Of a DNA stretch of 64,000 nucleotides, positions 1 through 62,249 are shown piece after piece. The position numbers and the translations under genes were made by a program. The notes beneath the pieces were generated by a model. It was not told where the DNA came from and ran no database searches. It saw nothing but the letters and a program-made list of their open reading frames with translations. Every line of letters begins with the position of its first letter. The first letter of the stretch is position 1. The stretch is from Raja brachyura (taxonomy: Eukaryota): positions 18,476,001-18,540,000 of the forward strand of contig OY740804.1 in NCBI GenBank assembly GCA_963514005.1, given 5' to 3'.

Positions 1-149
1 CGGCTATTCGTCATCAGTCATTCAAGATGGAAAGTGTTGCAACAAATGTCATTCCAAGCCAATGATGCGGATACGCAAATGAATAGAAAAATATTTCTAA
101 AACAATTGGATTTAAACGTCATGAAGGTTTAACCGGGCAACAATAAAAA

Positions 150-237
150 GTGTTTAAGAAGGAACTGTAGATGCTGGATAATCGAAGGTGGACAAAAAAT
201 GCTGGAGAAACTCAGCGGTTGCAGCAGCATCTAAGAG
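150..237. mobile_element. Short Penelope-like-element terminal fragment
   Basis: tgtttaagaaggaactgtagatgctgg...gctggagaaactcagcgg is shared with the end of the element at about 14025 and, inverted, with 12330-12408. Confidence 0.6.
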
Positions 238-1885: not shown

Positions 1886-2024
1886 TGAATCGTCAGTATA
1901 TATGGCGCATTGTAATGTCTGAGAACGCATCCTTGAGTGTGTGGATTTGTGCGCGCGCATGCCTGTGTGTGTGTGTGTGTGTGCGTTTGTTTTACGACTT
2001 GGCACGGCATATCTTCGGAGTTAC

Positions 2025-2060
2025 CTGCATTCTTTAGAGCCACCCTCATCTTTTTCATTT
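2025..2060 (-). CDS. Micro-exon, 36 nt ([12 protein letters not shown])
   Basis: gcacgtttcag|AAATGAAA...AAGAATGCAG|gtaact. Confidence 0.85.
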
Positions 2061-8000: not shown

Positions 8001-11000
8001 TCCATATCCACTCCCCAGGACAGCTCCACTGTCTCCCCTGCAGAAACATACAAGCGTTTACCGACCCGCCCTTCCCAAGCAAGTACGCTGCACTTCGTTG
8101 CGAAACACTCCACTTTGAAACAAAATAAGTATATCACCAATGTGTGTTCACACTGACATCCTATTTTATCCTCACCTTCGTCTTTGCAAATTCCTTTCTG
8201 TTCTAAATAAATAGGTTATAGTAACGTGAGTAATTAACGTTTACAATATTGGTATATTTTAATGCGATATGTTTAAATTCAGTTCGGTAACACGATTTTC
8301 TTACGTTAATGTCTGCTTTACTCTCGTCTACGAGTTGTTCATTGTATGTTTCTAAAACTATTCGGCTCAACATTACCAATAAATAGCATCTGCAAGCACA
8401 CACACATATACACACGTACGNNNNNNNNNNNNNNNNNNNNNNNNNNNNNNNNNNNNNNNNNNNNNNNNNNNNNNNNNNNNNNNNNNNNNNNNNNNNNNNN
8501 NNNNNNNNNNNNNNNNNNNNNNNNNNNNNNNNNNNNNNNNNNNNNNNNNNNNNNNNNNNNNNNNNNNNNNNNNNNNNNNNGATATATTAAAGACAGCGGG
8601 AGACATAGTATATTCTGTCGTATACCTGAGCTTGGTACGGATCAGTCAATACTACTAGTTTACCTATTGTTGGTGAATTTTCGCACAGTGTGGCACAGTG
8701 GTGCTAAAATTCTTCACGGTTACTTAATTGGCATGTTTCGGTTTTCTTGGGTGAAGTGGTGTTATTTTGTGATATATGCCGCTAACCATTCCTCGTTAAG
8801 ATGTTAATACTCACAATGTGGACATGATTAGATACTATGTCCTGATATGCTAAACGAGAGGCTGTCCCACCCGGCACGCGTTCTCATCCAGTCTTCGAAG
8901 TTGCCTCATTATAGCTTAGGGGACTTGATACGTTCAATATTAATTTAGCATCTTCACTGCTATGAACTCAAATCAACACATTTCTCCAAATGCCATTCAA
9001 TAATTAATTGTGCCACATACCTGCATCCTTAAGATAATTTCTTAGTTGTTCCACTTCTTTAAAAAAAATAATTTAATTAACATTGAATGACTTGATTCTT
9101 TTAATACTTATTGTTTTCGGCATTTGTACTGACTTCTCCCTTTTCTCCCATCGGCCGATCACAGCAACAGTCAATACCCCCACGATTCAGTGTCCATCTT
9201 TTTTGGCAACAAAGCACTTTTAATGCTAATAATCTCGACGATGGAATTGATCGCTTCGTGGCCATGTTTGTGGATTCTACAAAGACACGTGAAGAGGAGG
9301 ATAATTTTAAAGAAGCTGGTAGTTTGCAAAGGGAATTGGACAGGTTGGGAGCACGGGTAAAGAAGTGGCAAATTGAATACAGCGTTGTAAAGAGTACGGT
9401 CATATAGTTTGTTAAGAAGAAATAAAGACCATAAGACCATATGACCATGAGACCATATGACCAAAAGACCATGAAGCGCAATTAGGCTCCTTTTATTCCG
9501 AGTCCTCGTGCCCTAGAATCTCCTACTAATGAAAACATCATATTTACTCTTCCTGGGCCTTTCATTCTGCAGTACAAATCCTCAGCACCACCTGCCCTTC
9601 CACGTATCTTCGGTACGAAAAATTTAGAACACATCTCGACACTCTGAGAAAAGGATGTACTGAAGTTCGAGAGCGTCCAGAGGAGGTTTACATGAATGAT
9701 CTCTAGAGATGATTGGGTTGACGTATGAGGTGCGTTTGATTACGTTGATCCTGTGCTACGTGGCGGTTGAAAGGACATGGGGGGGATTTCAATTGACACC
9801 TATTATAAAAGGTCTGTAAAGAGTGGATGTGCAAGGGGTGCTCCTATCAGTGGTATAGTATAGGACCAGCAGAGCACGTTCACAGAATATTAGAGCGTGC
9901 CTTCATAATAGAGATGAAGTACATTTTATTTAGCTAGAGGGAGGTAAATCTGTGCAATTAATTATCACCTCCGGCTGTTGAGGTCATGTCATTTGGAGTT
10001 TTTTTCAAGTGATGTTTAACAACTTCTGGATTCGTATTTTAGTGTCAGGGCTTGTTATAAAAGTAACTAAACTATTATTATTTTCAATATTTATTTCAAC
10101 AGACATTTGATTACGAGCGCCCAGCACTGCTAGACATTATTGCTCATGGTTTATTTCCTGTAGCTAAATTTGTAGTGAATTCGCTTAGCAGTATTATGCG
10201 AAAGTATAAAACGTAAAATGCTCAATTAAAAATGGGACATAAACGAATATTCGTGGAAATATCCGAGTTGCTGATTTTCGACATAATTTCGCACTCTTAA
10301 CATCAATGTTTAAGACTGAACAAAATCAGCTAAAATTTGCGTCATATATCCATACAGGACGGAAGCAGGCTCTTCAGCCGACCAAAATTGTCCAAATAAG
10401 CTAGTCCCGTTTTCCCACGCTTGGGACAGATTCATCTAAACTTCCATTATCCGCTTACATGTCCAAGTAGCTTTAAAATAACGTGTCCCAACTACCATCT
10501 CTGGCATTTTGTTGCACATACCCGACACCCTCTCAGTGAAATGGATACCCCTTATTTTCCTATTGAATCCTCTTGCACCTCTTGTCCCACCTCAAACCTG
10601 TTAGTGATTACCATACCCTGGACGAAAAGTCAATCTGCATTCACCTTATGTATTGCCTTCATGATATTATACACAGCTATAACATCACCCCCTCAGCTCC
10701 TGACCTCAATTGAAGAAAACCCAAGTCAATCCAAATTGTCCCTATTGCTCAAGCTCGAGTCCTGGCAATATCCTCTCTCTAGATTAATCGGAACTACTAG
10801 ATATCGAGAAAAACATTATTTTTATGGATCTCCACATAATAAAAAACATTTTTTTATGGATCTCCACATATTGTATTTGGTATATTTCGCCGGAATATGT
10901 GAAAGTACATTGATAGTAATTTGAGGAATATATATGTCATATGTTACCTATCTTTTTCGCAAATAGTTCGGCATCTGCGTATTAAAAAAAACAAAGTCGT

Positions 11001-14000
11001 TCTTTCGTCTCATCTGTTTCCTCGTGTCATGTTATTGACAAACTTTGTAGTAATCTAAGTAAATTTGGATACATATAAGGCTGGCGTTTCCCCTGTCTCC
11101 ATCATGGGATATCGGTGACGCTGCGGGTGGAATTTCTGCCACTGGTGAATAGGTAGAACGTCGAAGTCGTCAATGCTTCTTTAGGCATCCACTGGATAAA
11201 TAGCCCCAGCGTGAAAACTAATTTAAGAATATATGTAATTGATTGGATAGCGAAGACAAATATTTGGGGATATTGGAGGGACGGGATCATTGTAAAACAG
11301 GTTTTTGATTGACATGCAATTTGGTGGCCGAATGTATGGATTATATACTGCTATTTTTTTGAAAAATCGCTTTCAGAAAATACTCATATCCCTGTCAGAC
11401 GAATAAATAATTTGCGTGTCGCTGGGGAAATGATGTAAACGTTTTACAGCATAACCAATTAGGCAGCTTTGAGAGACTTGTGCTTTACTGTGGTACCAGT
11501 GAATATTGTAACGACATACATGATTTGTCGTGCAGCACTTAACTGTAGCTTCCAACAGGGCAATAATACTATCGCTTCCAACATCAATTTTAAAAATATA
11601 TTTTCCAACTGTTCTATTCTGGAAAATAACGTGCTTGTTTGCGGTGACATTTAATCATTTCATATTTTTCACTTCTGAGTTTGTACACTTCACATATGTT
11701 TGTATCTGTCTGATATAATTACCCAATCAGGAACCATGATTACACATTTTGAATGTGAATTACTATTTATCGCTCTGAATTGTCTTAATGTTCTTTATGT
11801 TCAGTGGTATTGAGGAAAGTGTACAAAACTGAGCAAATAACTTTCGATTCGACGAAGCGTGAGTGATGCAGATAACCTGCTTGGTGGATCGTATGATGGT
11901 AAAGCGAAATTAAACGTCCAAAATACGTTACAGATTTATTCGTAAATGGAAAAGTGACCGTGCTGCATGATGATCATCAATAGTACAATGGTAGTAACTG
12001 AACTCCCTTTTCCAAGGGAATCCTATGCGTTACATATAACTGCACTCCTTCGTACATATCAGATTGATGTGAGGGTGGTGTGGGCGGGAAGAAGAAAGGA
12101 AGAGGCGGAGGCAGTGGGCTGTGGGAGAGCTGGGAAGGGGAGGGGAAAGAGGGAGAAAGCTTTCTCCCTCTTTCCCCTCCCTCTGTCTCCCTCTTTCCCC
12201 TTCACTTCCCAACTCTCCTACAGGCCACTGTCTCCGCCTCTTCCTTTCTTCTTCTCGCCCACACCACCCCCACATCAGTCTGAAAAAATGACTCGACAGA
12301 AACGTCACCTATTACTTCGTTGCATAGATGCTGCCTCACCCGCTGAGTTTCTCCAGCATGTTTATCTACCTTCGATTTTTCCAGCATCTTCAGTTCCTTC
12401 TTAAACATTCTATGTAACATTGTCTGTATGTATTATGTCTGTACCGTTAAGAGACTGAATAAATATAGCTGCTCGTTTCCATGTCATCCGTTTCCATAAG
12501 TGTATATCCAATAGTGTGATATCTCCCGAATAAATAAATTGGGCACACATTTGGTATGCAAATCGACTATAACAGAATAAATGAACAAAGAGTATTAATT
12601 TTCTGGCACGTTACATAGACTGAAACGATATATGTTCAGCATTGTCCATTGGTCAATAAACCTATGAATAAAATATATCTCAAGACGCACACTAAAGGTT
12701 TGGAAAAGTCAGTTAAATGCATGACAATGTAATTGCCGTGCATTTGAAGAGCACGGATGAATTATAGTAGTTGTTTGCTCTGTTTTAACTCGAATGTAGA
12801 ATATGAAATACGTTAGGGATAGTATAAGGTGCGAAGATCACAAAACAGAAGAAGATAATCAGCCTCAGAAGTACATAAACAATACACATTAAATAATAAG
12901 CAGGGGTACGTCAAATTTGAGCGTAAGTTAAAGAGAGGAGGTTGAAGGCTTCTAAAGATTTGTGTGTATAATAGCAAAAGGGAAATCAAATGTTATCACG
13001 AAGAGTCCGTAGCAGGGGAAATTATAATGAGGAAATAAAACAGTAGCAGACAAATTAAATCACGCAATGTTTCATAATGCACTAATTCGCATAAATAAGT
13101 AGTCCCTACTAGTGAATAAATGTTTAGTCAGGCATGGGGAGAACTGAAACTACTATTGGTTTGGAGATGGTGTTAGTTAAATTCGCAGGGTGGAAAGACG
13201 GTAAATCTCAGCAAATCGAAGAAAACACACATAATTAAATTTCAAATTTCAATAGCCAAATATGAAACGGGCAAGCAAACGATTCTGGGGTCTCTGTAAT
13301 TGGGGTTCAAATTTTAAAAATGGTTTACAATCGCTTCCTTGTGAATGTCAAAATGCAAATATTAGGCTGCCTTCGGAACGGTATTCTGATTAGATGTCGG
13401 TGATTACCATTGCGACGAAGCTGTTCTTCAAGTCCTATTAACATAAGCAGCGAAGTGTTAAACGTTCACGGCAAAAACATATAGGTTCAAAAACAAAGCA
13501 CAGAAAAAAGTCACAACCTACCTTCTTTACATAGTTGGAACTTCATCTCTGATGGAAATAACAGTGATCATATCAAGATCAATCGAAGATATTTATACTG
13601 CAATCGTTGCATTTCCGTAACTGTATCACATTGCATTAATTATACATATTTTAATCAATCATCCGGGATGTGTTATGGCGTTGCAAACATTACCACTTAT
13701 TGATCAATCGCATTTGTCGAATACATCGCCGTGAGAAACATTTTGAAACGCTGGAGAATTAATAGTAACCCTGCTTCTTCGCAGTACACTCGTGATGAAG
13801 TCTCGCAACTGCGCACTTTTCTACGTGCTTTGGAGATGGTCTTATCAGCAGACATATTTCACTGGATAGTATAAGGTGCGAAGATCACAAAACAGAAGAA
13901 GATAATCAGCCTCAGAAGTACATAAACAATACACATTAAATAATAAGCAGGGGTACGTCAAATTTGAGCGTAAGTTAAAGAGAGGAGGTTGAAGGCTTTA

Positions 14001-17000
14001 ACGTCAGCGATTCTGGATTAAAGATGTTTAAGAAAGAAATACAGATGCTGGAGAAATCGAAGGTAGACAAAAAAGCTGGAGACACTCAGCGGGTGAGACA
14101 ACGAATATGGAGCGAAGGAATAGGCGAAGTTTCAGGTCGAGACACTTCTTCAGACTGATGTCGGGAGGGGGGGGGGACTAAAGGAGAGGCGGAGACAGTA
14201 GGCTGTGGGAGAGCTGGGAAGGGGAGGGGAAAGGTGGGGAAATCAAGGCCTACCTGAAATTGGATGTTAATGTTCAAACCACTGGGGTGTAAACTACCCA
14301 AGCTAAATATGAGGTGCTGTTCCTCTTATTTGCGGAGGGCCCCACTCTGGCCATGGAGGAGGCCCAGGCCAGAAAGGTCGGATTCGGAATCGGAGGGGAA
14401 GTTAAAATACTGAGCCACCGGGAGATCGGGTTGGTTGTTGCTAACTGAGCGGAGGTGTTGGACGAAGCTGCTCACCGATGTAGAGCAGTTGACACCTGGA
14501 ACAGCGGATGCAGTGAATGAGGTTGGAGGAGGTGCAGGTGAACCTCTGCCTCACCTGGAAAGTCTGCTCGGGTCATTGGATGGAGTCGATGGGCGAATTA
14601 AAGCAAATTGCCGGGGGGGGTGATTTCGTTTGGAAGGAATGAATTGACCAGGGAGTTACGGAGGGAACGGTATCTGCGGAAAGCAGAAAGGGGAGGAGAC
14701 GGGAAGAAGTGGCCAGTGGTGGGATCCCGTTGGAGCTAGCGAGATTGTCGGAGGATTGTATGTTGTATGCGTCCCCTGGTATGGTGGAAGGTGAGAACAA
14801 GGGGAACTATGTCCTTGTTGCGAGTAGGGGGATGGGAAGTGAGAGCGAAGCTACGGGATATAGAGGAGACCCTCGTGAGTGCCTCGTCTATATTAGAATA
14901 CAGGAACCCCCGCTCGCTAGAAAATGAGGACATCTCCGATGCCCTGGTTTTGAACACCTCATCGTGGGTGCAGATGCGGTCGGTAGTCTGTTACCTGCGA
15001 TGGAGGAAAAGTTGTTGCGGGCAAGGACCCGCTCCGCTAGGCGGAGAAGAGAACTAGTAGACGGGGATTGCTCGATTCTGCGGTCGAGGAAGAAATGGAG
15101 GGCTTTCAGACCCTCCTGGTGGGAATGGATACGTATGGTGACTGGACATCCATAGTGAAGATGAGGGAGTGGGGCCTGGAAAACGAAAGTCGTGAAGGAG
15201 ACGAAGAGCGTGTGAGGTGTCTTGAACATAGGTAGGGAATGATTTGACCAGGGAGGATAGGATGGAGTCGATGTAATTGGAAATAAGTTCGGTGAGATAA
15301 GAACAAGCAGTAACAATGGGTCTGCCAGGACATTTTGTGGATTTTGGGGTGAAGATAAAATCGGGCCGTGCGGGGCTGGGGAAAGATGAGGTTGGAGGCT
15401 TGGGAGGGCATGGATACATAATATAAGTACAATAAGGCGAAAAGGGTAATCGCAGAATTCCTCATGAATCAAAGCGGCCATCACTGTGTGGAGCCACAAG
15501 AGATGGGAAATTCTTCATTTAGTATGTCTCCTCTATATTTACTGTGATGACAGACATGAGAACCGGGGAAACTTGAGGCAGTCAATTGAAGCGTATTGTG
15601 GACAGTTTGTATTACGGTAGACGAGGTTCTAAAGTCCTAATGCGCATGAAGAAAGACACATATCCCGGGCCCAACCAGATATATCTAAGCTGGTAAGCTA
15701 AAGGAGAAATTGCAGGTTCTCTGGCTGATGTATATGGTTCATCATTAACCACGGGTTAGAAAACGGAAGACCGGAGACTGGCAAATGTTGTGTCTCTATC
15801 TATGAAGTGCTGCAGCGAAACATAGAAACATAGAAACATAGAAAATAGGTGCAGGAGTAGGCCATTCGGCCCTTCGAGCCTGCACCGCCATTCAATGTGA
15901 TCATGGCTGATCATCCAACTCAGTATCCCGTACCTGCCTTCTCTCCATACCCCCTGATCCCTTTAGCCACAAGTGCCACATCTAATGCCCTCTTAAATAT
16001 AGCCAATGAACTGGCCTCAACTACCTTCTGTGGCAGAGAATTCCAGAGACTCACCACTCTCTGTGTAAAGAATGTTTTCCTCATTTCGGTCCTAAAGGAA
16101 TTCCCCCTTATCCTTAGACTGTGACCCCTTGTTCTGGACTCCCCCAACATCGGGAACAATCTTCCAGCATCTAGCTTGTCCAACCCCTTAAGAATTTTGT
16201 AGGTTTCTATAAGATCCCCCCTCAATCTTCTAAATTCCATCGAGTACAAACCGAGTCTATCCAATCTTTCCTCATATGAAAGTCCTGACATCCCAGGAAT
16301 CAGTCTGGTGAATCTTCTCTGTACCCCCTCTATGGCAAGGATGTCTTTCCTCAGATTTGGAGACCAAAACTGTACGCAGTACTCCAGGTGTGGCCTCACC
16401 AAAACCCTGTACAACTGGGGGAGCCTTGGGGGAAAATGGCTAATGAGTTTAACATCTAAGGGATCAGATGTTCATGCTGTTTAGTGAGACACCTACTGAG
16501 TAGCAATAGCCAGCACAGTTCTGCTTGTGGGAAATCGTGCCTCGCGAATCTGATGAGATTTTTGATGATGTGACCAAAAATAGAGATCGGGGTCAGAACT
16601 GTAGACGTTATACCTATTAATTTTAGTAAGGCATTTGACAAGGTTCCACAGGGTAGTGTCTCCGGGAGGATAGATCGCATGGAATCCAAGGAGAGCTAAT
16701 CAACAGGATAGAAACGTGGCTTCGCTGAATAAAGCAGCGTGTGATAGTGGAAGGTTCTTCGGACTTGAGGCATGTGGCTAGTGCTGTGGCTCAGGTGTCG
16801 GTGCTTGGCGTATCGCTGCGGGTCACCTGTATCAAGGATTTGGATGAGAACGTATCAGGCTTGATTTGTAAGCTCGCAGATGACATTAAAGTGGGTGGTG
16901 TTTAGATACCGAAAATGGTTTTCAAAAATTGATGGAGAACGTCGATTGGTTGGGTGGGTGTGCAAATGAATGGTTAACATAGTTTAATAAAGAAAAGTGT

Positions 17001-20000
17001 GACGTGCTTCATTTGAGGAAGTCTAACAAGGGCAAGACCTACACATCTAATGTAGACCACTGTAGAGTGTTGAGGCGCAGGAGTGAATGTACGTACTTCC
17101 TTGATACTGGCGCCAACTGTAGAAGTGATAGTCATTGAGGATTTCGGCTCACTGGCTGTACCTACTCAAAGTGTTGAGTATAGAGGTTGGGGGGTTATAT
17201 TACAGTTATATAAGACGTTGTTGATGCCGCTTTTGATGTGATGTGCACAGTACACTATTTTTGTAACCGCACAGTACATGCACCACACGCAGCTATGGGT
17301 CGTGTTGCCTCAGGTGGGATTGGGCTGTTACACATTGCCATAGGGCGCAGGTTTTGGTAGTTGTGAAATAATATAAACAAAATGTAATGGAATACACAGC
17401 AAGTGATAATGTTCTGGCTCTCGTTCGGTACACGTTGCAAACAATATCATATGTGTCAAGCTTATATTAGTTTTGCTTACTTATCAATCGCACACATTAC
17501 GATAGTTTACCTGGTTCATTTCGCTACTCACTTTGGCTGCCTATCTATATTACTACCTATCTGTCAGGCTTGCTGCAAAGGTGCACACTAGCCTGCTTAC
17601 GTGTAGGTTCGTCTATCTCTGCCTGTCCGTCTCTCCTTTTGTTCTCTCCCTCTCTCCCTATCCGATCAGAACTTCAGAATGCTATCAGAACATTTGTACA
17701 TGCGCAATGATAGTTTAAGCATACAGGGAACGTGGGGGGAAAGACAGGCAGGTGGGGCAAGTGTAGATAGGTTATGTTGGTCGGCGTGGGGAAGTTGGGT
17801 CGAACGGCCTGTTGTCATGCAGTATGACACTATGACTCTATTACTCGCTCAGTTTATGGCAACATCCACTACACCCGGTTCACACTTCTCCTCTAACAAG
17901 GTTGACATTACCAGCTCTAATATTTCCACATGAAGCTGGACATAATATTATAGTTCTGTTTGCGTGCAGTGTTGATTTTTCAGAGTTCCATACTTTAAAT
18001 AACATTTTTTTTCAGAAGATGGGCTTTTATTTTCAAACTATCTACTATACTTGCCTATGTCCTGAAACGCCTTCAAATATTACGCTAAAGCGGCAGTCGT
18101 CAGGAAACCAATGGGTATTTGTCACTGGAGTTCCACGCTCCAAATACATGTTGCGTGAAGGGCGTCAAGTCTTGCCCATACACGCAGCTGCAGTCAACAT
18201 CTTTGAGCGCAAGATTATCTCCTAGGTCGGAAGCTGGTGAGGGCATAATGTGTTGAATGGTATAATTGTAAACAGAATGAATTCGAACGCCCATCCCTCC
18301 TGCACTTCTGTAAGACCATCATAGCACCCAGGTCTATTTGCGTTACTAATACCTCAGCGAGATAACAACACATTACGAAGTTTGTCGGAGATCAATGGTG
18401 AAATGTCCTCGCTCATTTTTGCTTTGATTTATTGGTGAAGCCTGGTCCATGTGGCAGAATTCGTCCAATATTTCTGCCTTTCTCAGAACTCCAGCAAAAT
18501 CATCTATATAATGTCTTTTCGTTTGCGAACTATATTATTATTTTTTTGAAACACAAATACCGCCCTGTGATAATTGCCTCAGATACAATCTGTTTACTTC
18601 TCACTTGCGCACCCTACATAAAAAGATCTAGACTTCGACATTTAGCCTCACTAATTTCATCGATAAATAGGCCGTGGTCACATGATTATTTAACACATTG
18701 ACGAGAACTACACACAACTCCCTCGGCATTTCAACAATATCTCTGCACGAACTTCAGTTTCACTTTCTCGAGCATAGAATATCCCGACCATAGAAAATAA
18801 ACGTATGTACATGTATTTGGTTGTTATGTCATTATAAGCAGTGCGAATATGTTTCAATGAATGTCACATGCATAACCACATGTGGCACATTGCACTTTCC
18901 TTTAATTATAAAATATTGCAATATTATCCTCTGTACAGACTTTCCTTTTTGTTGGATGACGGTGCAACGTAAATTCAACTCCATTTGAGACGAAGGAATG
19001 TTGGTTTAATACTCACCTGAATCTTGAAGAGTATGTTTTACATTAACCAAATCTAAAAATAGAGTTGGATGTTAGGTTTGTTTCTGACGTGCAAGGCTTG
19101 TTGTTATATTGCCGATTCTTGTTACCGTCGGCATTTTACGGGTTAGTGCCATAGTATGCAATATAACGCCTCTTGGAATCAAATAACCAGGCATGGGATT
19201 ATAAGGGAAATTGGTTGAAGAGTACATTTGGTGCACGCTTTAAATCCCGAGATTCTTGGCAGTTTCCAGGTCTTGGTCTGGCTGAGGTCCTCCTGGTGTA
19301 TAAATTTGTGGGTAATAGCTATGGTGATTGTATTTCTTCCAAGCTGAACTTCAAAGGAAGGCAACGAGGGTGAACAGGGTTGGCCATTTCCCTGTGTGAT
19401 TTCGAGAATGTAATCTACCAGATTGTCGCATAATGGAAAAACACGCATCAGCGCATGACGGTGATGCTCACCATATAATTATCAACAAAATCTTCTTAAC
19501 TGGTTGATTTTCCACCAAGGGGAATGCAATTGTTGAACAATAAATTTGCCAAGATACCAGAAAGGAATCTCAGCGTTATTAACTACATATATAAATTAGA
19601 ACTTAAATCCGGGTGTGCGCATATGACGGTTGAAGCCGAACACGTGCACCAGCACCAACAGAATGGTTTAATATAATAATAAATTCTAACCACTGTTTTC
19701 CTGTGATGCGTGCAACACGCCAATTGCTGATGTGAGTATGTTTTTCAATCGATTTGAAAAATAAACAGATTTTGAATATATATTTGGTGGTATTGAACAA
19801 CGGGAGAAAACGAGTTGGTCCTCTATCACCCGGCAACTCTTCATAATATGCACTATTGCCCAATAATTTTTGGATATAATGTCAAAGATTCATGCAACAC
19901 TGTACCAGGGCCGTTGGCTTGACTTGTCCATGCCGAACAAATGTCTCCAGAAGCTCGTCTTTTTATCACACAAGTCGATCGAAATCGTTCCTATCCGTGC

Positions 20001-44000: not shown

Positions 44001-47000
44001 ATTTCGACCGCCCCGACGTGGGCGTTTCGATCGCCCCAACGCGGGAACTTCGATCGCTCAGATGCGGGGGCTTCGACCGCCAGCTGCGGGGGCTTCGATC
44101 GCCCCGACGGATGGTTCGACTGCGCCGACCCCAGGAAAATAAAGAGGAAGAAGATTGTACTTTTTTGCCTTCCATCACAGTTAGGAATGTGGGGAATACG
44201 CTGTGGTGGATGTTTATGTTTACTTTTATGTAGTTGGGTGTCTTGTTGCTTTTTTCGCATGGCTGTGCGGTAATACCCATATCACTGTACCTGTGACAAT
44301 AAATGACCATTGAAATCTTTGACAGTTTTGAACCATGCACGTTCTATCAAATTAACGAGTCTAAAATCCCTCATTAGATCCATTTTGGGGCATGGAATTG
44401 GCCGGAACTGACACCATAGATGGACAATAGACAATAGGTGCAGGAGTAGGCCATTCGGCAGTTGGAGCCAGCATCGCCATTCAATGTGATCATGGCTGAT
44501 CATCCGCAGTCAGTACCCGGTTCCTGCCTTCTCCCCATATCCGCTGACTCCGTTATCATTAAAAGCCCTATCTATCTGGAAAGTATCCAGATGGTTATTA
44601 AAAAAACACGGATCACGAAATTAACAGTGTCAACTATTTTATAAAAAAGATAGAACTACAAGGCAAAAGATCCTCGTGGATCTTAGTTAATGACTCTAGC
44701 TCAGCTGACATTCAACCATGTTCACGTCTAGATAACACAAACCGCAAATCTGTTAACATATCAAAGGTGTTTCAGAAAAGTCAAGTAACTCCGTTTATAA
44801 AATAATTGTTGCAGACTCACCCAAGATTAAAATGCACGCGATCCATCAAATTTTGGATATTTCTGTTCAGAACTATCTTCTCCATAGAAGCACAAGGATT
44901 GCAGTGGCAGTGTGTTATTTTTGCCGAGGTCTATGAAAGGCAGATGGAGATGGAGCCGAGCAAGTGAGCGCTGTTGCACTTATAGAAATGTAATGTATGG
45001 AGAAAATGTATACTTAATGGACTTCAACGCACTGATGTACAGAGGGACGTTGGGGATCACGACCATAATTCCTTGAAAGTGACAACGCAAATAAATAGTT
45101 GTAAATACCGCATATCGCAAATCTGAATTCAAGCATATCGTATGTTTGAATCATTGGTCGGCACATTGCGTATCATAATCAGGATGTCATGTTGCAGCTT
45201 TTCCACCGTTCTATATTCTATATTAGTAGCACTGACTATATATGCTGCATTGTGAAAAGGATATACAAGCATTTTGAATATTATGTTCACCTTTATCTTT
45301 ATTTGATTTTTCTGCTTCTAAATTAAAGGGGGGAAATGAAATCGTTTCAAACAAGTGATTACACAGCCAAACACGATTTTTTTATAGTGGCATTTCAAAG
45401 GCACATTTCAACGTGAAATATGGTTTGTAGGCGAGTTCATCGGTTTCGTCGGAGCTTTGCTAATCATAGGTCCAATATGACATCATAACATCACGTTGGA
45501 TGACATCAAAGTAAAAAATAGTTGTCCAAAATGCTGTATGTTATAGGCTGCATGGATATCCTTTGCATTTGCAAACCGAAGCGGAATGGATTCACACAGC
45601 TATCGTAGTGAAGAATGTCATATTTCCATTAATTATGAGTTTGGCTCTTTAAGTATCCCATCTAGAGATTGGGACTTTAGCACAAGAAGGTGCCCTGCAT
45701 CTATTTTCAACTCTAGCTATCGGGATATTTCAATGTGTATATATGATATGTTTTAATTAATGAAAAACAAACTATTCGTGTTCCAACCTCATGTAAAGAA
45801 AATGTTCTGATCTTCATCTAAAGCAGGCGAGTACTGAGCCATTATTGTTTACAGTAATGTTTCACACCTTACCCTTCCTTATCTCTATGTCTCCCTCGCC
45901 CCTGACTCTCAGTATGAAGAAACATCTCCCGAAACGTCAACCATTCCTTCTCTCAAGAGATGATGCCTGTCCGGCTCGGTAACTACAGCATTTTGTGCCT
46001 TCGGTGTAAACCAACATTCGCAGTTCCTTCCCACACGAGGATATGATCATTCTCGTCAGCCTGCCTCCAGTCCATGCCTACTCTCTGCATATCCAAGTGT
46101 CGATCCAACTGCTCCTTAAAAGCCACTATCCTATCCTCGTCCACCACAACACCTAGCAGCCTGAAGCAGGCAATCATTATCGTCTGTGTTAAAAGTGTGC
46201 CCCACAAATGTTTTCTAATCTTTGCCTCTCTCACCTTAAATTTCCACATTACGTCAATATTAACTATAACATTAAACACCGTTCAATGGAAAGATTGAAG
46301 TATATCCCACCAATCCCTCACCGGCATTTTTAATTTGTTCCATGGCGTTTCCCAATTCTGAAATAGAATAACAAGAGAGTAAACATTTCTTCAGTTGTAT
46401 GTGGAGTAATTGGTCAGATTGTCTCCAGCGCCACGTATTGTGACGTTGCGTATAGGAAGATAGTGGCCAAGTGAATCTTTAGATGAGGAGATGGTATTGG
46501 CGTCAGAGATTCAGCATTTATTTTTACCATTGGGATTTATTCTGGGGTAAGGGCGATTTGCAGAAAATGGACACATTGTACCTGAATTGGAACGAGCCAA
46601 ATTCCTGTCGGGTCTGTTAACTCGAGCTACTTCGGAGAGCTAAAACTTGTAAAAGAGGGTTGAGAGCAAATACAGTAGTCAGTCAGTAGGAAGGCCAGAT
46701 ATCAGTTTCAGCGAGTCAGTCGACAGGATATGCGGAGGCCCGGCAGGGACTGAAGAATGATAGTTTGATGATTTATTTCAATGTTAGAGGTCTGACAAAT
46801 ATGGTGATGAACCCGGGCCTCGATAGAAACGTACGACTGAGATTTGCGGTTAGAAGAAGCTGGCTAAACTGGAATTGAACTGACATATCAAATTCTCATG
46901 GGAGAGCATCTACTTACGAGATGGGGGTGTGGGTAAAATCGAAAGGGAATTGTATTATTATTTAAGGAGATTTTCACGGCAATAGTTCGAGATGACATGA

Positions 47001-50000
47001 CTGTGGGTTCATACAGTACGGTCGACGAATAAAAAGGGATTGTCATCTTGTTGTAATTACATTATAGGCCACCGAATAGTCAACGGGAAATTGAGAAAGA
47101 TTACATAGAACTGCAATAGGTTGGCATATTATGGATTTTTATTTGTCCCAATATAGATTGTGACTATCGGTGTGTGACAGCCAAAGACATTTGTTAAGCG
47201 CGTCCAATAAGGTTGACCCAAACAATATGTAGTGGGCGTTACAGAGGAAGCGAAATGTTTGAACAATAAGGGAAGTGGGCAGGGGAAGTTACTGAAAATT
47301 CTACGGGCCTGCCTTATTGGACCTGCAGGCACAGGCCTGTTTCAAATCGATGCGAAGTCAAATGTAATGGTACTCGATAGCAACTTGCTACATAGATTAG
47401 TGTAGGTTGTTTCCGGCCAATGGAACGTCCCAATGTTGGATATCAATAAAAGTCTAATGATGAGTGTACAAATAATACGTGTTCCAGTTAGACTGACGGA
47501 AAATGTACGTCGGATTCGGTAACCCTGGATGCCGAGAGAAATGAAGGCTTTCGTCAGGATAAGACAGTCGGGTTCACGTGAATGGCTGGTTGGATATAGG
47601 GGATAGGGGAGCAGACGAAAGTGAATTAAGTGGGCTTGAGCCTGGAATCGAGTAGGCAAAAGCTGGGAATGGTCTATTGGCAGAATCAATGAAGGCACAA
47701 TGGCTTGCGTTGTAGGAAGAGGTCGGGCAGGCTTGCACACAAGGCTAGCGTGTGACCTAATATCTGTGTTGTAATTCATGAGGTGAATCGATATGTTAAA
47801 GACAGCGAGTCTTTATCACGGGTTTGGGGAATCAAAAACTATAGACGCATGTTTAATATTGAGAGAGGCTAGATTTAATAGGATACTTGGGAATATGTAA
47901 TTGAAAAATGGACAAGTGCATCGATAGGAATCTTTTCAGTGAACTGGTCCGAACGCGGCAATTGTGGGGGGGGTCTATATTGGGATCTAGGTCGGCATAG
48001 GCGAATCATGCCGAAAGTCATCTTTCCTTCATGCACGATTCTGTGACGCTATGATTAATGGCACCCACTGATCGGTTGTTTCAACTTCAAATAATAAATT
48101 GATCTCGCTTTGCGGTCCTGAAAATTGTTATTTGGGATGTTTCGTCTGTCCCTGTTCTTTGATGTGCCTGTTGTTATTAATCTCAGTCTACGGGTCGCTG
48201 GAATAATTCCTCACCAACTGCATTCCTGAACTTGGGCATTTTTCAATTATTTGTTTTCCAATGTCAACGTAATTCTGCTCATAGGAACACAACCCATGCG
48301 GACGGCCGTAAGGCACTGTGCACGTATATTAATCGCACCTGCGAAAACTGGGCATTTCCAAAACATGGAAACAAATTCGATTTATATTTTTGCTTTTGTT
48401 AAAGGCCGCATGTGTCTTCCGCGTTGTTACCGAGACGGCAAAAAAAAACATTTGCTGAATCATAGAGTTAGGGGAATTTCCATAAAGCGCAGTTGAGATG
48501 TAAGAGATGTATCAATTACTGTTTCAGATGGTCCCAGTCACCTTTTCGATCCTTTGAAGGCGACGTAATTTCTTCTCTCCCTATTCGGATGACCTTTCCG
48601 TCGTTGTATTTTATTTGGGTTGAGCGTCTCGAGTATTAGCCAAGTCGCATAATCAGCAGAGTCGTAAAATCAGAGATGCATTAGGTTCTTAGAGGCATAG
48701 AGTTACATAATACCGAAACAAGACCTTCGGCCTAACTCGTTCAAGCCGCGCAAGGCGCCAATCAGGACTAGTCCCATGTGTACGCATATGTTCCATATCG
48801 CTCATGGAACCCACCTCCGGGAACAAGACTAGGTATGAATCCATCTGTGCGCTTCGTGATATTATACACACAGAAAGATCACCCCTCAGCAACCTACTCT
48901 GGCCTGTCCAACCTCTTTCCATGGCTCTGGTACTCGAGTACCGGCAACATCCTCATAAATATTCCATACAATATTTCTAACTTAATGCATATTTCACATG
49001 GCTTGCTTCTAAACAGTGACCTCGTCATTTTGAAGGACAAATGCAACCTCATGCCCTAACTGCGAAATCCGATGGCCGTACTGTTGAGGCATGGGTAACA
49101 CCGTCTTCGCCATCTTGTGAACATGCGACGCCTCTTTCAATAAACTATGTATTCCTGCGTCCCTCTATTCGAGAGTACTCCATGTACTCCTGGGTCCCTC
49201 TATTCGACAGCACTCACCAGGTATCTGCCCAAAACTGTGGAAGCTTTGATTACCCTCTCCACTGTTCCACTCTTTCCGACACTACGCATTGTTGCGCCCT
49301 CCGAAAACAAACTAACCGCTCTTTTCATGTAAAAAAGCGGAAATAGATGATACTCACAATGGGCCCAGCACTGACCCCTCAAGCGCACCACTGTTCATGA
49401 GGCTCAGGTGCGAAAAACCCTTCACCCTATATTTCCTGCCACTGAGTCAAGTATGTGTCTAATTATGTTGTTCGCTCTGGATTCCGTGTGATCTATATTT
49501 CCTGTGTAAGTTACAATGTCCAATCTTTTCAATAGTTTTGCTGGAATCATGCGTCAATCGTCCTCATCAGATTTGTCGGCCACGTCAACATTACAAGATA
49601 ACATTCGTGAAAAACTAGCTGCAAGGAGCTGTGCTGCCGACTCCAAATATACCTATGCGTTTCAATATTCATTTGTCCCTTTCTCTTCAAGTCCCATCCA
49701 ATAACGTACCGAGCACAATTGTCAGGCTTAATGCTCTGTAGTTTCGATTGGTTTTCTTTACAGCACCTCTTAAATAGAGGCATAACATTATCTACCCTGC
49801 AGTCTTCAGAAATTGCACCAGTACTACGCAGTGATGTACAGCCAGGGGCCCCCATGGTATGATATACCTTGCCAGGTCTCCGAGATTGAGCAGTCATTTT
49901 AAGCTGTCCAGTACTTCGAGCACAATTCGATATACTCCGACGACATCAATAGTAGCATCCCCCAAGTGTCCTTGTCTTCCTGTTTGAAGACGTATGGACA

Positions 50001-53000
50001 TTCCAAACAGAGCCGGAATTTTCATTGCTAATCTCCCGCGGCTCTAAAAGTATATATCAACATTCGTCTTTGAGGGGTCCTATTCTATCCCTCGTCATCA
50101 TTTTCTTTAATATACTTTTGAAACCTTGGACTTTCCTGAACCTTGTTGCCAAGAATCTTTCATGTCCCCTATTTCTTTCGGAATATGTCCCATCCTTTCA
50201 CACCTGCTATAATTCACTTGACCCCTCCTGCTTTTAATTAATCCATGTCTCCTTCTTTTCTCTAACCAATGAGATATCTTGACATCCAAGCTTCCTTCTA
50301 CTACCGATCTATCCCTTAGCTCGAACAGAAAGAATGTAGATTGTGAACCTTCGCTATCTCACTTTTAAAATCCTCCCACGGTGGACCGCCGTTCGCCCGC
50401 AAACAACTTTAAAAATGTAACCCTATCCACTTTTGCAAACACCTTTCTAAGTCCATCCACATTTCCCTTGCGCTCCTCCAATGCCCATTGATGCTGATGC
50501 GATGTCCGCAATCCCTACCAGGTGACCATCCCATTATCATGTCTCATGTCTGTCCACAAGTTCTCACTGGATGATCCCTCGGTAACATCATCTCGGAACA
50601 CAGCCGTGATGTTGGAAAAAACATGTACTCTCGCTTCATCGCTATTTCGTCTATCGCACGTGTACCATGAACAGTTTTGGTATGAATCCTGTCCCTCCTT
50701 CATCCATGCTTGCATAATATCTATAATATTCCGTGCTATGAACCTATCCATGCCACAATTTCACACGCCTCCACTGGATGACACATTGCATTGATAAAAG
50801 ATGCTATTAAATACAACGGCCCTTTCTGAGTCACTTCCTGCTCCGTTCAGCTTGTTTATAATCCCAGACCCCGCCAATCTATTTTAAAACATCCTTTGTA
50901 ACTCTGTCACATCTACAGGATATTGGTCAACCTCCTGTTCGGAAGCAACCGATCCTTCTTGTGCAGGTCACATCTGCCTAAAATGAAATACCAGTGGACC
51001 AGAAATATGAATCCTTGCCGACCGCACGAACAGTTCAGCCACGTAACCATTTGTTCCGTACGACTCTTCCAGCCGTCACAACCACGTGATTCTGATAATA
51101 ATCCTTAACTACCAAAAGGTCCTGGTTTTCACATTTTTGCCTTACTCTCAATATTCACATAATTTACCCTTTTCTACATATGTAATTTGTGCCAATGTGC
51201 AGGTCATCTCTGGCTGCTCAACCAGCCCTAGGGGAATATCCTGCGTACCTGGAATCAGGAAACAAATACGCATCTCGCTATTCCGTTTGTGACCACAGAT
51301 CTCTTCTTTGCAACCCGAATTATCGAATCACCTGTCACTATGTATCTGTCTGTCTCTACCAGTTCCCGCTGTGCCTTTGCGCCGGCGTTGCTGCCGCGGG
51401 TGCAGCTGCAGCTGGTTGATCCGAAACTGCGATCAGTATCAACAACGACATACATGATTTTATGGGGAATGGCCACAAAGGAATTCCTGCCTATTCCTTT
51501 AGCTTGTGGTAACTCGGCTATTATTGCCTGGACCATAGACGTGATCGCCTCGCCATAATTCCGGCCTCTAATGCTACTGCGTGCGTTCATCTCCAGATGC
51601 AGTACCGTCATCCCTTCAGTGAGAAGATACACCTAGTAATACTTCTCGTATGAGTAGTCATTGCGGACATTGAAAGATTCAGATGGCGCACGTTCATGAG
51701 ATTTAACTTCCCAATGCGTCGTTGCACTAAGCAGTACCTCTAATAGCACTATAGAATTGTAAAAAGGATTGTCAACAAACAAATCTCGACAATAATCATT
51801 ACACATATCTAAGTAATTAATTTACCCGCAGTTTTCTTCGCCAATTCGCATTCTGTTTAGGAAAGTTAATAACCAGAAATATTTCAGTTACTGTTCAACT
51901 TGCTATGGGATATATAAAATTATTTAAATCGCTTTCGAAAATAAAATCGGCATTTCAAAGTGATGCTCGTGCATGCAGTTTTATGTATTAGTTTGTTTGA
52001 GAGCTGCATTGAAAGTATTGAAAATAGAGTGCGAGAGAAAAAAGTGTCAAAAATTCCGATTCAAATTGCATGAATGAATTTGTTGTTATCTGCCGTGGGC
52101 GTTATTTGGGACAAGTTTGGACACTTCACAGATTTATGATCCAGGTGATGTTGATCTCCTTCCTCCATACACACGACGTTTAATGAAGTTGTGCTTGTTT
52201 ATACCATTGAACCACAATAAAAGTAAGCATAACTGTGTTACCGTTTACAAAGTNNNNNNNNNNNNNNNNNNNNNNNNNNNNNNNNNNNNNNNNNNNNNNN
52301 NNNNNNNNNNNNNNNNNNNNNNNNNNNNNNNNNNNNNNNNNNNNNNNNNNNNNNNNNNNNNNNNNNNNNNNNNNNNNNNNNNNNNNNNNNNNNNNNTGTG
52401 TGTGTGGCTGCGTGCGTGGAGGGGCGTCAATGGAATGTATCTTCCGCCCGTCTTAAAAGTGGATCTTTAAAAAAGACTTCAGTGGCTATCAAGAATATGC
52501 ATATTCCACACAACCAGTTTGTTTGTTTTAAGACCTTGTGCCAAATAACGCCCACAGCAGATAACAACAAATTCATTCGGGAGAAATATATTCCCCCTCG
52601 CTAGTTAACTATGAAAGCTTTCTAGGTTAAATCGAACATTCGGAAAATCTAATGGCGTTAAAGCTGAGGTACGATCTTCGGCAATATTTTTCCTTTCTTC
52701 CACTTTCAATATTGGAATTTGACATCGTTTATTGTCTCGCTGATTCACTCTTCCTCCTCACCCAATATTTACTTATTTTGTGCGGCAGTCTCGTATCCCT
52801 CGTTGTCAGGCAACTGAACCATCGAACCAACAACTAGAGGCGGCCCTGAACTATTATCTACCTCATTGGAGACCCTCGGATTAATTCTAAACGGACTTTA
52901 CTGGCTTTATCAAGCACTAAACGTTGTTCGCGGCTCTCTCTTTATCATGTAACTGTACACGATGCATGGCTTGACTGTAATCATGCATTGTCTTCCCGCT

Positions 53001-56000
53001 GACTGGTTAGCACGCAACGAAAGTTTTCCACTGATCCTCGGTACACGTGAGAATAAACTAATCTCAACTCAATCTCCACAACCGCAGGATTTATCCTTAA
53101 CTCCGCACTTTCACTTATCTTTCTTGGATTGCCTTGAATTTTCTATTTCTGCCATGCAATTGGTTTTCAATTCTCACATCCATGAGCCTAATCTCGGTGT
53201 CATCGGCTACCTGACTGATACCAAATGCAAAGTGTAGGAGAACCCATGATATATTCCTCATGGATACGCTACAAACCAATGGCAAGAAAAAATATTACTA
53301 CAAGTTCAGTTAAGCTACATGACATTTGTCGTATTATCTCTGCTCCTAAATATTAAGGTCCTCTTAAACATACCCTTTCAGGTACAATATTCACAGCCCT
53401 TCTATCAGCCTGTCCCTTTATCGTATCCCATTTGCCCCTTTCCACAGGCACCTGCTGCTGAACTCACTCCCATACTAGCCACACCTCCTCTGCCTCTTTG
53501 GTGCCTTTCTTCCCATATGCGTGTCCTTGATTAAGTATACCATGCATCTTAAAGCTCCCGGAAAGTGCAGTATTGAGTTCTCAACATAACTCCCCAGACT
53601 ATGCTGCTTTCTTGTTCTCTGTTCCACCTGGCCTCAATCTGCCCTACATACCCTTAAAATCTGTAAAGGAAGNNNNNNNNNNNNNNNNNNNNNNNNNNNN
53701 NNNNNNNNNNNNNNNNNNNNNNNNNNNNNNNNNNNNNNNNNNNNNNNNNNNNNNNNNNNNNNNNNNNNNNNNNNNNNNNNNNNNNNNNNNNNNNNNNNNN
53801 NNNNNNNNNNNNNNNNNNNNNNNNNNNNNNNNNNNNNNNNNNNNNNNNNNNNNNNNNNNNNNNNNNNNNNNNNNNNNNNNNNNNNNNNNNNNNNNNNNNN
53901 NNNNNNNNNNNNNNNNNNNNNNNNNNNNNNNNNNNNNNNNNNNNNNNNNNNNNNNNNNNNNNNNNNNNNNNNNNNNNNNNNNNNNNNNNNNNNNNNNNNN
54001 NNNNNNNNNNNNNNNNNNNNNNNNNNNNNNNNNNNNCTTTTAAATGTTCTTGAAGTTGATCAATTTCTGTAACCAGATTTTAAACAAGAGGTTGTTCAAA
54101 TGTACTTAAAATGCATTCCGAGAAGAATCAGATTAATGGAATATTTCACACCAATGCCTATTTCTTCTTGTATTTGTCATACCTTACAGCCATTATAATG
54201 TCACTCACGTAATGCTTAATTACAATTAAACCCAGGTCAACGAACAACTGACATCATTTTACATTTGTACAGCCGATGTGGCCCATTGGTTTTGAAAGAA
54301 TGGCCTTCTCCGAATCAATGACTTGCAATTGTAGAATTAGAAGGTGGAGGTATCTCTAATTTGTAACCCACGCGCTGTTGACGTCACATTACAATGAACC
54401 CAATTGTATAAAACATGATGGGATGAGATATAATTACGCGGTAAATGTACCATAAATTGACCTATATTGTATTCCTGGTTGGAAGCCATCCGAAAGATGC
54501 ATGAAACATAGTTAGCCAAATAATTTACGAATCAAATATATGCTTCAGGTATTACAATGTAGATCATAAATAAAGGAAGATAATCGTTACTTAATCGGTT
54601 AATCCCATGAGATATTTCCTGCCATCCAGTCAACTGTACAACATTTAAAAATATGTGTTTCTTAATCATGAATGCAGGTAGATGGTAGTGTGTCCGATAT
54701 TTGTGCAACAGTCCAGATATAGATTTGTTCTCGCTGAAAACTCTTTGTAATTCATCTGAGCTAATGACACTACATATTGACGGAAATAATTGCAAGAATT
54801 GCATTTTGATAACGCTATGCTTTGATGTTTGTTCTTTCGGGCATGTATTTATTTTGTCATGGAACAAACATTGTCAGACAAATCATAAGCAGTGAGTTAT
54901 TCTTCCAGTGGAGAACAAAGCTATTCGTTAGTGAATTTACATGCATGTGAATAAGTGCTAGTTATTTCTCCTCCTGCCATCGGCCTAACTGATTTTAGAA
55001 ATTGTTAAGCACTTAATTGATACCTGTAGAAATACCCGCGAGATGGCCACAAATATTTGAAAACTGGATGCGTAATATCCATCTTGATTTGTGTTCACAC
55101 TTCAGGTGTGGAAATATGTATAATTTGAGGAAACGCCCCGTTTTAATGGCACCAGAGTAATTACCATTGAAATGTACTGCATTGTGTGTTGCGCCATCTA
55201 CTCAATCCCGTGTCTGCATTTTTTGTTCTACGGAACAGCTACAGGACTGCTTGGAGTCTGTGGACTCGGCAACGGACCTGAATGAATTCGCCACAGTCGT
55301 TACAGACTTCATAAGGAAATGTGTAGAGGACTATGTTCCAACAAAAACCTTCCGAATGTTTCCTAACCAGAAGCCTTGGATGGACCATGAGATCCGCATT
55401 CGGCTTAAGACCATATCCAGGGTATTCAAGTCTGGTGACGCAGAGATCTATAAGAAGTCCAGATACGACCTTCACAAGGCCATCAAAAAGGCCAAAAGGG
55501 AATTCTGCTCTAAGCTGAAGGATGAGGCAGATGTTCGACACTGCGGCAGGGCTTGAATGCCATCACCTCCTCCAAGGCAAAATCAGGAAGCAGCTCAAAC
55601 AGCGAAGCATCACTCCCTGACGAGCTCACTGCATTCTACGCACGATTTGATAGTGAGAACACAGATGTGCCTTCCCGAGCTCCCATTCGCGCTGATGGTG
55701 GTACAGTCATAGTCACAAAGGCCGACGTTAGCAGATCCTTCAGGGGGTGAACCCTCGGAATGCGCCTGAACCTGATGGTATACCCGGCCGAGTTCTCAAA
55801 ACCTGTGCAGGCCAACTAGCTGAGGTTTTTGCGGACATTTTCAACCTCGCACTTCTGAGGTCTGAGGTTCCCACCTGCTTTAAGAGGGCATCAATAATAC
55901 CGGTGCCCAATAATAGTAAGGCGACTTGGCTCAATGGCTATCGACCAGTGAATCTAACGTTTGTGGTAATGAAGACGTTTGAGAGTATGGTTATGGGGCA

Positions 56001-61753: not shown

Positions 61754-62249
61754 CTGAAACAAAAATAGAAATTAAGTAATTTAAATTCCTGGTGACATAT
61801 TAGCTAAAGCGTGTTCGTATCCAAATGTCAATGTGTTTTCTTGCAAGAAGTGAGTTTCTAAAAAGTATTTTCATAACATCCATAAGAGCTACTTGTTCAA
61901 AGCTGTAGAGGCGAATGGGATAGCAGGGAGACTTGTAACTCCTGTCCAAACATATTTCTGAAACTGGTGGCAAGTATAATTGACGGATGTTTACATGACC
62001 AGAAGTATGTTCAAATTGAGTTCAAAGAAAGTCAGTTGTCCATTATTTTGTGATGTACTGTTGTTATTCGTTTAACGTAATTGTATGCAACGTGATAAAG
62101 AACTGTACAGAAGCGATAGACAAATCATTGGTTTGGCGCTACAAAAACAATTTGGAAATTCACAGCACTCATATTGTCGGGTTAGCTGGGCAGAAAGCAA
62201 CAGCGACGAAAATTTAATGAACAAATTGACGTCATAACATATTAAGATC

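Follow-up and report, generated by a model that had tools for sequence, protein, structure and literature searches.

The coiled-coil tail of the chicken BG/zipper protein is, in the account given in PMC4046983, built from tiny exons 21 or 24 nt in size, 13-36 of them depending on the gene, and a cytoskeletal role is proposed there for these tails. The description includes an Ig V domain, a transmembrane exon and a last exon holding 3'UTR, and B30.2 does not figure in it (PMC4046983). The intracellular part of butyrophilins is described as heptad repeats followed by B30.2 (PMC4046983, PMC12841164). The Raja brachyura locus reported here encloses the entire 64,000-nucleotide stretch of DNA that was analysed (the window). 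It resembles chicken BG, as far as that description goes, in encoding a coiled coil by many tiny exons, and differs from it in that the exons measure 27 or 36 nt, number about 190 and lead to a B30.2 domain, with no IgV found in 1.264 Mb. Small heptad-encoding exons followed by a B30.2 exon are a feature shared with butyrophilins, and BTN3A1 (PDB 4N7I) is the best PDB sequence match of the skate B30.2 (4.3e-23). Unlike butyrophilins, which have a few heptads, the skate gene has some 270, and the B30.2 domains of its family form a branch of their own. In the alignment to 4N7I, the two histidines and two of the arginines that we take to line the basic phosphoantigen pocket of BTN3A1 are replaced by small residues, so that the pocket is not preserved.

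A helical scaffold joined to B30.2 is also found in the TRIM/pyrin group (TRIM20 CHS-B30.2, PDB 4CG4). In contrast to RBCC-type TRIM proteins, whose coil is encoded by a few larger exons, the skate gene builds its coil from microexons and shows no RING or B-box. The enterophilins of mammals, soluble long leucine-zipper rods of about 30 heptads that carry B30.2 and no N-terminal domain, may be likened to the skate rod in their architecture. We conclude that the window probably belongs to the 5' portion of a gene region some 0.9 Mb long, in which about 190 phase-1 microexons likely encode a coiled-coil rod with predicted hinges, about 2,000 residues in length, and a B30.2 domain.

The window lies within an array of phase-1 microexons

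The preliminary description of this DNA had listed 16 exons in two tandem units of eight (36-27-36-27-36-27-27-27 nt; 81 residues). The coordinates, minus-strand orientation, AG acceptors, sizes of 27 or 36 nt and open phase-1 frame held for 15 of the 16, and among these the donors are GT with the sole exception of the 29246 exon (GC). The first exon is cut by N: it has an acceptor at 54066, and its size of 36 nt is assumed because only 30 nt are visible and the remainder lies under N. The first intron includes 507 N bases, where the sequence is unread. A sensitive rescan of 10948-54066 added a single weak candidate, of 15 nt, at 35204; its score lies within the control-strand range. The 27- and 36-nt exons of the window are real, and others lie on either side of the listed range (Table 1).

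Table 1. Features of the window and its surroundings, in window positions unless a contig is named
Feature	Position	Strand	Remarks
Upstream NLR gene	NACHT window 198067-199962; LRR exons to 193433	same as array	
Gene region	~window +164,000 to G000:C24:17709238-17709753	-	Encloses window 1..64000; ends in terminal B30.2 (PRY-SPRY) exon
42-nt phase-1 microexon	61712..61753	-	Upstream of the earlier range; strong splice sites
27-nt microexon	58241..58267	-	21 nt with alternative acceptor; opens unit A if the register begins after a short-intron pair
36-type microexon	54037..54066	-	30 nt readable, with the 3' end masked by N
27-nt microexon	51826..51852	-	
36-nt microexon	46322..46357	-	
27-nt microexon	45291..45317	-	
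36-nt microexon	42499..42534	-	First of hinge module
27-nt microexon	41102..41128	-	Precedes 132-nt intron
27-nt microexon	40943..40969	-	Follows 132-nt intron; predicted hinge class
27-nt microexon	36341..36367	-	Last of hinge module
36-nt microexon	35734..35769	-	
27-nt microexon	34677..34703	-	
36-nt microexon	29552..29587	-	
27-nt microexon	29246..29272	-	GC donor
36-nt microexon	19017..19052	-	First of hinge module
27-nt microexon	13522..13548	-	Precedes 87-nt intron
27-nt microexon	13408..13434	-	Follows 87-nt intron; predicted hinge class
27-nt microexon	10948..10974	-	Last of hinge module
36-nt microexon	9021..9056	-	Third unit
27-nt microexon	8176..8202	-	Third unit
27-nt microexon, weaker	6715..6741	-	Its presence makes the third unit nine exons
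36-nt microexon	3650..3685	-	Third unit
27-nt microexon	3010..3036	-	Third unit
36-nt microexon	2025..2060	-	Third unit; short-intron pair (-669, -793) just beyond window

The minus-strand array spans 917 kb and contains 201 microexon candidates compared with 19 on the control strand, so that about 19 of the 201 are expected to be false; under a strict rule for 27/36-nt exons, the counts over the same 917 kb are 161 and 2, far more than chance would give. These two sizes account for 180 of the 201 candidates, and the median distance between detected exons is 3.5 kb. When joined, the candidates give a chain of 1,999 residues with 2 stops. No 27/36-nt microexons were seen in 100 kb sampled further upstream. 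The first exon of the window's gene was looked for and not found, and candidates at 216139 and 215824 were rejected, both lying within a high-copy repeat. No butyrophilin IgV/IgC/transmembrane part was found in the gene as recovered without its first exon, C2-set_3 being absent from contig C24 among 50 matches of 85 scored. Queries with six fish butyrophilin-like proteins and with TRIM proteins matched no Ig, RING or B-box in 1.264 Mb outside the B30.2 exon; of the best 150 B-box candidates out of 461, a single one is on C24, at 36.2 Mb, and neither RING nor B-box occurs in the Narcine and Scyliorhinus models. A C-type lectin stalk of the CD23 kind, with 21-residue repeats, was rejected (the 1.264 Mb contain no credible lectin motif, and none of 42 matches falls on C24), and collagen-type exons were ruled out by the lack of Gly-X-Y (Gly at 36 of 1,999 residues).

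The array ends in a B30.2 exon and belongs to a family of five

The last exon of the array matches Pfam SPRY at 62.4 bits (cut-off 26.3; 5.4e-17), and the fold of its Narcine relative matches TRIM and BTN B30.2 domains with a target TM of about 0.75. With both the SPRY match and the beta-sandwich fold, the domain is a member of B30.2/PRY-SPRY. The Leucoraja RefSeq model XP_055510696.1 contains all 11 of the predicted last microexons in order, spliced onto B30.2, with 85 of 93 exon-internal residues identical to the prediction; it is the 3' end of the orthologue of the window's gene. Together with XP_069775384.1, XP_038672306.1, XP_038668997.1, XP_042191566.1 and XP_078422387.1 it makes up one family of automatic RefSeq models, labelled TRIM39-, TRIM58-, TRIM69- or A33-like. 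They are 175-460 residues long and lack most of the microexon array. In other species, the difference between isoforms is 6 or 9 residues. A protein search at near length with the Leucoraja model recovered its own cluster only, and a search at longer length covered records up to 2,000 residues, a limit that a full-length protein could exceed.

Five paralogues were found, all with microexon arrays, a count that rests on this type of B30.2 and would miss arrays that do without it. Their B30.2 domains group with the shark, ray and chimaera models with support of 100/100, and the sister group of this branch is without strong support in a tree that has only four labelled fish BTN-like rows, on long branches. 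The shortest paralogue, on the minus strand of contig C25, is colinear with Narcine XP_069775384.1, and its first coding exon starts Met-Ser and leads directly into the coil. Two paralogues are on C25, as are most TRIM-type SPRY and butyrophilin C-domain matches among the matches listed. Between two sister paralogues, exon number varies about 7-fold and span 12-fold. No published description of a microexon rod-B30.2 family was found in a search of open-access article texts.

Coil modules and a predicted hinge module probably explain the eight-exon pattern

The microexons encode a coiled coil. In 36-nt exons, positions 1, 4 and 8 are hydrophobic in 94, 92 and 85%, and position 3 of 27-nt exons in 74%; the joined chain has a Fourier peak at 3.51, and its top lags are 7 and 21. 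The arithmetic of the preliminary description is correct, 36+27 nt giving three heptads and 27+27 nt two heptads plus four residues. Two building blocks are real: the 36+27 three-heptad pair, and a 36-27-27-27 module with a short intron between its second and third exons. Short-intron pairs number 11 in the window's gene and 1 in a paralogue; the small module that they mark was seen 8 times from 41128 to -99306, unevenly spaced, and one further time on another contig, in a paralogue. The run of three 27-nt exons had been read as a stutter or hinge, and it probably is a hinge. Exons after short introns are richer in G/P/D/N/S (0.30 compared with about 0.19; Fisher p 0.023). In the structure that AlphaFold models for the Narcine protein, the helix breaks at residues 54-61, and the orthologue of the exon encoding them is the second exon of a pair with a 145-nt intron. 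The third exon of the module is a predicted helix break.

Whether an 81-residue unit exists above these blocks is a separate matter. The preliminary description saw an ancient tandem duplication of an eight-exon block, with selection keeping the 81-residue period. The size order does agree over 16-17 exons, both units have the unusually short intron between exons 6 and 7, and both have the D-L start of exon 5 and E-x-K-h in exon 6. The repeat is not confined to two units, however: an imperfect third copy follows, with an additional 27-nt exon (6741) and a 97-nt intron between its 27-nt exons at -669 and -793. Three consecutive units of like make-up may be true block duplicates: in register they are more alike than shuffles (nucleotides p 0.008, amino acids p 0.006-0.04), and lag 8 is best or near-best in the three array segments covering the region (z 0.4-0.5). 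Units 1 and 2 by themselves are marginally similar (nucleotides p 0.03-0.09, amino acids p 0.13). The in-register signal is lost, however, when the three module-defining exons are removed, the five remaining exons of the three units showing no likeness at i and i+8 beyond module class (p 0.125-0.646, in a test of low power with 144 arrangements). Nor is the size order in itself above chance, as 11.6% of simulated arrays have a period-8 repeat somewhere in 201 exons (P=0.116), and any period from 5 to 10 appears with P=0.527 over 201 exons and 0.043 within one 24-exon stretch. The spacing between adjacent short-intron pairs ranges from 3 to 9 detected exons, and the introns of the two units lack similarity, as had been noted (0 blastn hits outside repeats). 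The short intron does not count as separate support for the eight-exon unit: it marks the small module. Of the two periods expected, 21 residues is among the top lags, whereas the lag-81 hydrophobic peak of 0.45 falls to 0.08 over the whole array; the size order itself produces that peak. The array appears to have grown by duplication of exon blocks, as the earlier reading held; that an 81-residue block was the unit duplicated and selected we regard as possible and rather doubtful. More likely, the eight exons combine, in a locally repeated order, two building blocks that are smaller and far older, the 81-residue unit probably consisting of two 21-residue coil modules and the older 39-residue hinge module.

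Proposed product and competing explanations

Direct observation covers the exons with their phase and heptad pattern, the B30.2 exon at the end and the five paralogous arrays; database models support a transcript in which the last 11 microexons are joined to B30.2, and a start directly in the coil in one paralogue. If the approximately 190 microexons are spliced together, the product would be a soluble coiled-coil rod interrupted by predicted short hinges and ending in B30.2. A coiled coil rises 0.148 nm per residue, and the rod may be roughly 300 nm long, with chains presumably pairing as a parallel dimer. The array could have grown by unequal crossing-over of frame-neutral exon modules. By analogy with the proposal for chicken BG/zipper tails, the protein may act in the cytoplasm, either as a tether or as a scaffold that forms filaments: the rod would set the spacing, the hinges would allow bending and the B30.2 heads would bind a partner. 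More tentatively, and with somewhat less than even confidence, we suggest that cartilaginous fishes have an undescribed family of giant single-chain rods of 2,000 to >3,000 residues, encoded almost entirely by 27/36-nt microexons in genes of 0.7-1.6 Mb with up to about 300 exons. Three-heptad and hinge modules, added or skipped, would determine length and hinge spacing, making these proteins exon-programmed molecular rulers with B30.2 tips.

The array might instead give rise to many shorter coil or coil-B30.2 forms through internal promoters and heavy exon skipping. All exons are frame-neutral, database isoforms omit single exons and use other starts, and the Leucoraja model begins only 11 microexons ahead of B30.2. 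Yet short models would be expected from annotation of a megabase microexon gene, and the array keeps to one strand and one phase, closes with a single B30.2 exon and contains no coding domain besides; we consider this reading unlikely. NLR-B30.2 fusions exist in bony fish, and the upstream NLR gene, which shares the strand of the array and lies 30 kb from its first microexon candidate, has a possible donor within its last LRR exon, so that an NLR-rod-B30.2 receptor could be imagined. This NLR has its own last exon with a stop, however, counterparts of that exon adjoin dispersed NLR paralogues, its LRR exons are in phase 2 and the microexons in phase 1, and the paralogue that starts Met-Ser does so without an NLR. 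Such a fusion seems very improbable.

A further alternative concerns function rather than structure: the rod may space two B30.2 heads for a large repeated ligand, as in an innate-immune sensor like pyrin or TRIM5, instead of acting as a structural tether. The closest solved domains are those of BTN3A1, pyrin and TRIM21, C25, where two paralogues lie, carries most of the TRIM-type SPRY and butyrophilin C-domain matches listed, and rod length differs strongly between sister paralogues. Effector domains (RING, PYD, Ig) were not found, however, the family is an old one of only 5 copies, unlike the hundreds of TRIM-type matches in the Raja brachyura genome, and a megabase gene would presumably be slow to induce. 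We hold a sensor to be about as improbable as the shorter forms, and keep the tether or scaffold as the working proposal.

The five genes occupy about 4.5 Mb of genome and are mostly invisible to annotation, the database models holding only the last few exons of the family under TRIM-like names. Titin has 363 exons; if spliced whole, the largest gene of the family would approach it in exon number and encode one of the longest vertebrate coiled coils. Since the sister paralogues differ so widely in exon number and span, the family is a natural experiment, both in how proteins grow by frame-neutral exon modules and in the recognition of hundreds of tiny exons across long introns. Its bearing extends to how butyrophilin and BG tails arose. 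The eight-exon unit, as one local arrangement of modules, is of lesser importance. A comparison of open reading frames between the two convergent genes gave repeats only, among the matches listed. Separately, DNA contigs of a related organism cover 30 of 30 bins of the region, and the listed differences are mostly repeats.

Microexons and the proposed eight-exon unit

The preliminary description placed a unit of eight exons (36-27-36-27-36-27-27-27; 243 nt, 81 residues) twice in tandem at 10948..54066. Fifteen of the sixteen exons listed have the size given there; on the minus strand they read open in phase 1 between an AG acceptor and a GT or GC donor. For the first, the acceptor lies at 54066 and only 30 bases are visible, its size of 36 being assumed. 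The introns of 132 and 87 nt and the motifs common to both units are present as described, and the units have no unique intron sequence in common, again as had been stated. Rescanning 10948..54066 for extra exons that would break the symmetry yielded no credible one, 507 N bases there being unreadable. GC donors occur in several microexons (29246 in the window; also -10259, -113762 and 133362; coordinates are those of the window, negative or above 64,000 in flanking sequence).

Hydrophobic residues occupy positions 1, 4, 8 and often 11 of the 36-nt exons and position 3 of the 27-nt exons, and 36 + 27 nt make three heptads. The joined candidate peptide gives a Fourier peak at 3.51, with top lags of 7 and 21. 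The second block of the array is the module 36-27=27-27, with "=" for an intron shorter than 200 nt. The window gene has eleven of these short introns, eight lying between 41128 and -99306, and the minus-strand paralogue on another contig, C25, has one. The exon that follows them is enriched in helix-breaking residues (p 0.023) and is predicted to encode a hinge; in a single AlphaFold monomer model, that of the Narcine protein XP_069775384.1 (mean pLDDT 83.8), the orthologous exon coincides with a helix break at residues 54-61, and a second break falls at 148-157. Cysteines recur at or beside the d position of 27-nt exons (13548, 29272, 8202 and 3036 in the window, downstream to -118631) in this stretch of the rod, possibly as inter-chain cross-links or metal sites.

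The eight-exon unit is made of two 36+27 pairs and one hinge module, and a third copy, with one additional 27-nt exon, lies downstream. Among 2,000 arrays simulated with exon sizes drawn from a second-order Markov model, 11.6% contained a period-8 size tandem and 52.7% some period of 5-10. Unit 1 and unit 2 are marginally similar, and a lag-81 peak is circular as evidence of an 81-residue period because the same size order yields the same hydrophobic pattern. The exons are real; the higher-order unit is supported only in part. Duplication of the unit as a block would fit three consecutive units of identical make-up, which in register are more alike than shuffles (p 0.006-0.04) when the module's three class-specific 27-nt exons are included; with these removed the values rise to 0.125-0.646, in a test that is weak. 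The data do not require such a duplication, and module spacing varies in the adjoining array. Since three successive units are alike in make-up and the test is weak, we retain block duplication as a tentative reading, on balance doubtful.

Extent of the window gene

We scanned 1.264 Mb around the window (G000:C24:18476001-18540000; G000, the Raja brachyura assembly; C24, the contig carrying the window), using an approximate generic splice model and then a model trained on the strongest matches. From +164,000 to -752,000, 201 non-repeat candidates (106 of 27 nt, 74 of 36 nt; 6,000 nt in total) lie on the minus strand versus 19 on the plus strand, or 161 versus 2 under a stricter rule; the trained model learned from the minus strand and is biased toward it, but the excess was already present in the untrained scan (19 and 15 versus 0 and 0). 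At its end the array has a phase-1 exon that codes for a B30.2 domain and carries a stop codon. In XP_055510696.1, an automatic RefSeq model of the orthologue from Leucoraja erinacea, the last 11 microexons are spliced in the same order to the B30.2 domain, and our calling rule recovered 11 of 11, with 2 extras.

A candidate second local unit, with a 15-nt exon (about 36-15-36-27-27-27; 56 residues, or 8 heptads), recurs several times between -342000 and -480000, and an intron holds a long tandem satellite (-227000 to -245000) whose plus strand yields numerous long open frames.

Arrays and neighbouring features (paralogue spans estimated from samples, assuming one gene per B30.2 exon)
Feature	Location	Strand	Coverage
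Paralogue array	C24 15.71 to at least 16.90 Mb	minus	sampled
Paralogue array	C24 about 17.00 to 17.67 Mb	plus	sampled
Window gene array	C24 17.71 to 18.64 Mb	minus	scanned
B30.2 exon of window gene	C24:17709238-17709753		
Paralogue array	C25 29.61 to 29.75 Mb	minus	sampled
Paralogue array	C25 29.76 to 31.33 Mb	plus	sampled
NLR gene	window coordinates 193433-199962	minus	
Upstream bounds, presumably two tandem ETS-domain-like exons (judged from peptide)	C24:18760725 and 18777804	minus	
Upstream bound, presumably Na/K-ATPase alpha-like exon (judged from peptide)	C24:18807717	plus	

A family of B30.2 genes with microexon arrays

Two separate searches returned the same five B30.2 exons, each with a 27/36 array upstream. 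Sampling 190 kb of the plus-strand C25 paralogue gave 37 matches versus 1, or about 300 exons by extrapolation; its sister gave 41 versus 2. A tree built from 61 B30.2 domains, with outgroups hand-picked from the search matches, places the five skate sequences, six named models (from skate, electric ray, catshark, basking shark and elephant shark) and one unnamed row on one side of a 100/100 branch, and gives no strong support to any sister group. Differences of 6 or 9 residues separate four isoform pairs, and one of 19 a fifth, largely what microexon skipping would give. No description of the family came up among the papers listed by literature searches, and the exons belong to a large gene family, apparently undescribed, found in cartilaginous fishes.

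The two C25 genes stand head to head, their starts no more than 17 kb apart, and long open frames in this interval read as repeats or non-coding sequence. In the minus-strand gene the first coding exon holds Met-Ser and one further base, and the exons after it are colinear with Narcine XP_069775384.1 starting at residue 1, so that at least this member consists of coil and B30.2 only. For the window gene no first exon was found, and the 1.264 Mb scanned gave no Ig, RING or B-box matches. The NLR gene (NACHT 8.5e-38 plus LRR exons; a 200-base N run in its 5' part) lies 30 kb upstream of the array on the same strand and belongs to a dispersed family, which gives 79 NACHT matches, mainly at 60-64% identity. 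Splicing of this gene onto the array is disfavoured by its own stop-bearing last exon, counterparts of which lie beside the dispersed paralogues.

Proposed architecture

Exons, phase, heptads, terminal domain and paralogues are all directly observed. Splicing would join the array exons in a single polypeptide about 2,000 residues long, which may pair as a parallel, hinged dimer of roughly 300 nm. The array may have grown through unequal crossing-over, to which it would be tolerant since all its exons are frame-neutral. The protein could act in the cytoplasm as a tether or scaffold, with the B30.2 heads binding a partner; the chief alternative for its function is that of a sensor. Such a product would be reminiscent of enterophilins. 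It would work in the manner of the intracellular tails of butyrophilin and BG proteins, as portrayed in PMC4046983 and PMC12841164, yet it falls outside the butyrophilin, BG and TRIM families, whose N-terminal domains were not found in the 1.264 Mb scanned.

TRIM-type SPRY and B-box matches are dense on C25 (about 11-42 Mb), with butyrophilin C-domain exons near 40-42 Mb, and we infer that this is probably the MHC-linked chromosome. The short C25 paralogue contains a young run of 36+27 pairs (C25:29640000-29667000) with closely similar peptides and introns of 0.3-0.5 kb, the best place for watching module duplication under way.
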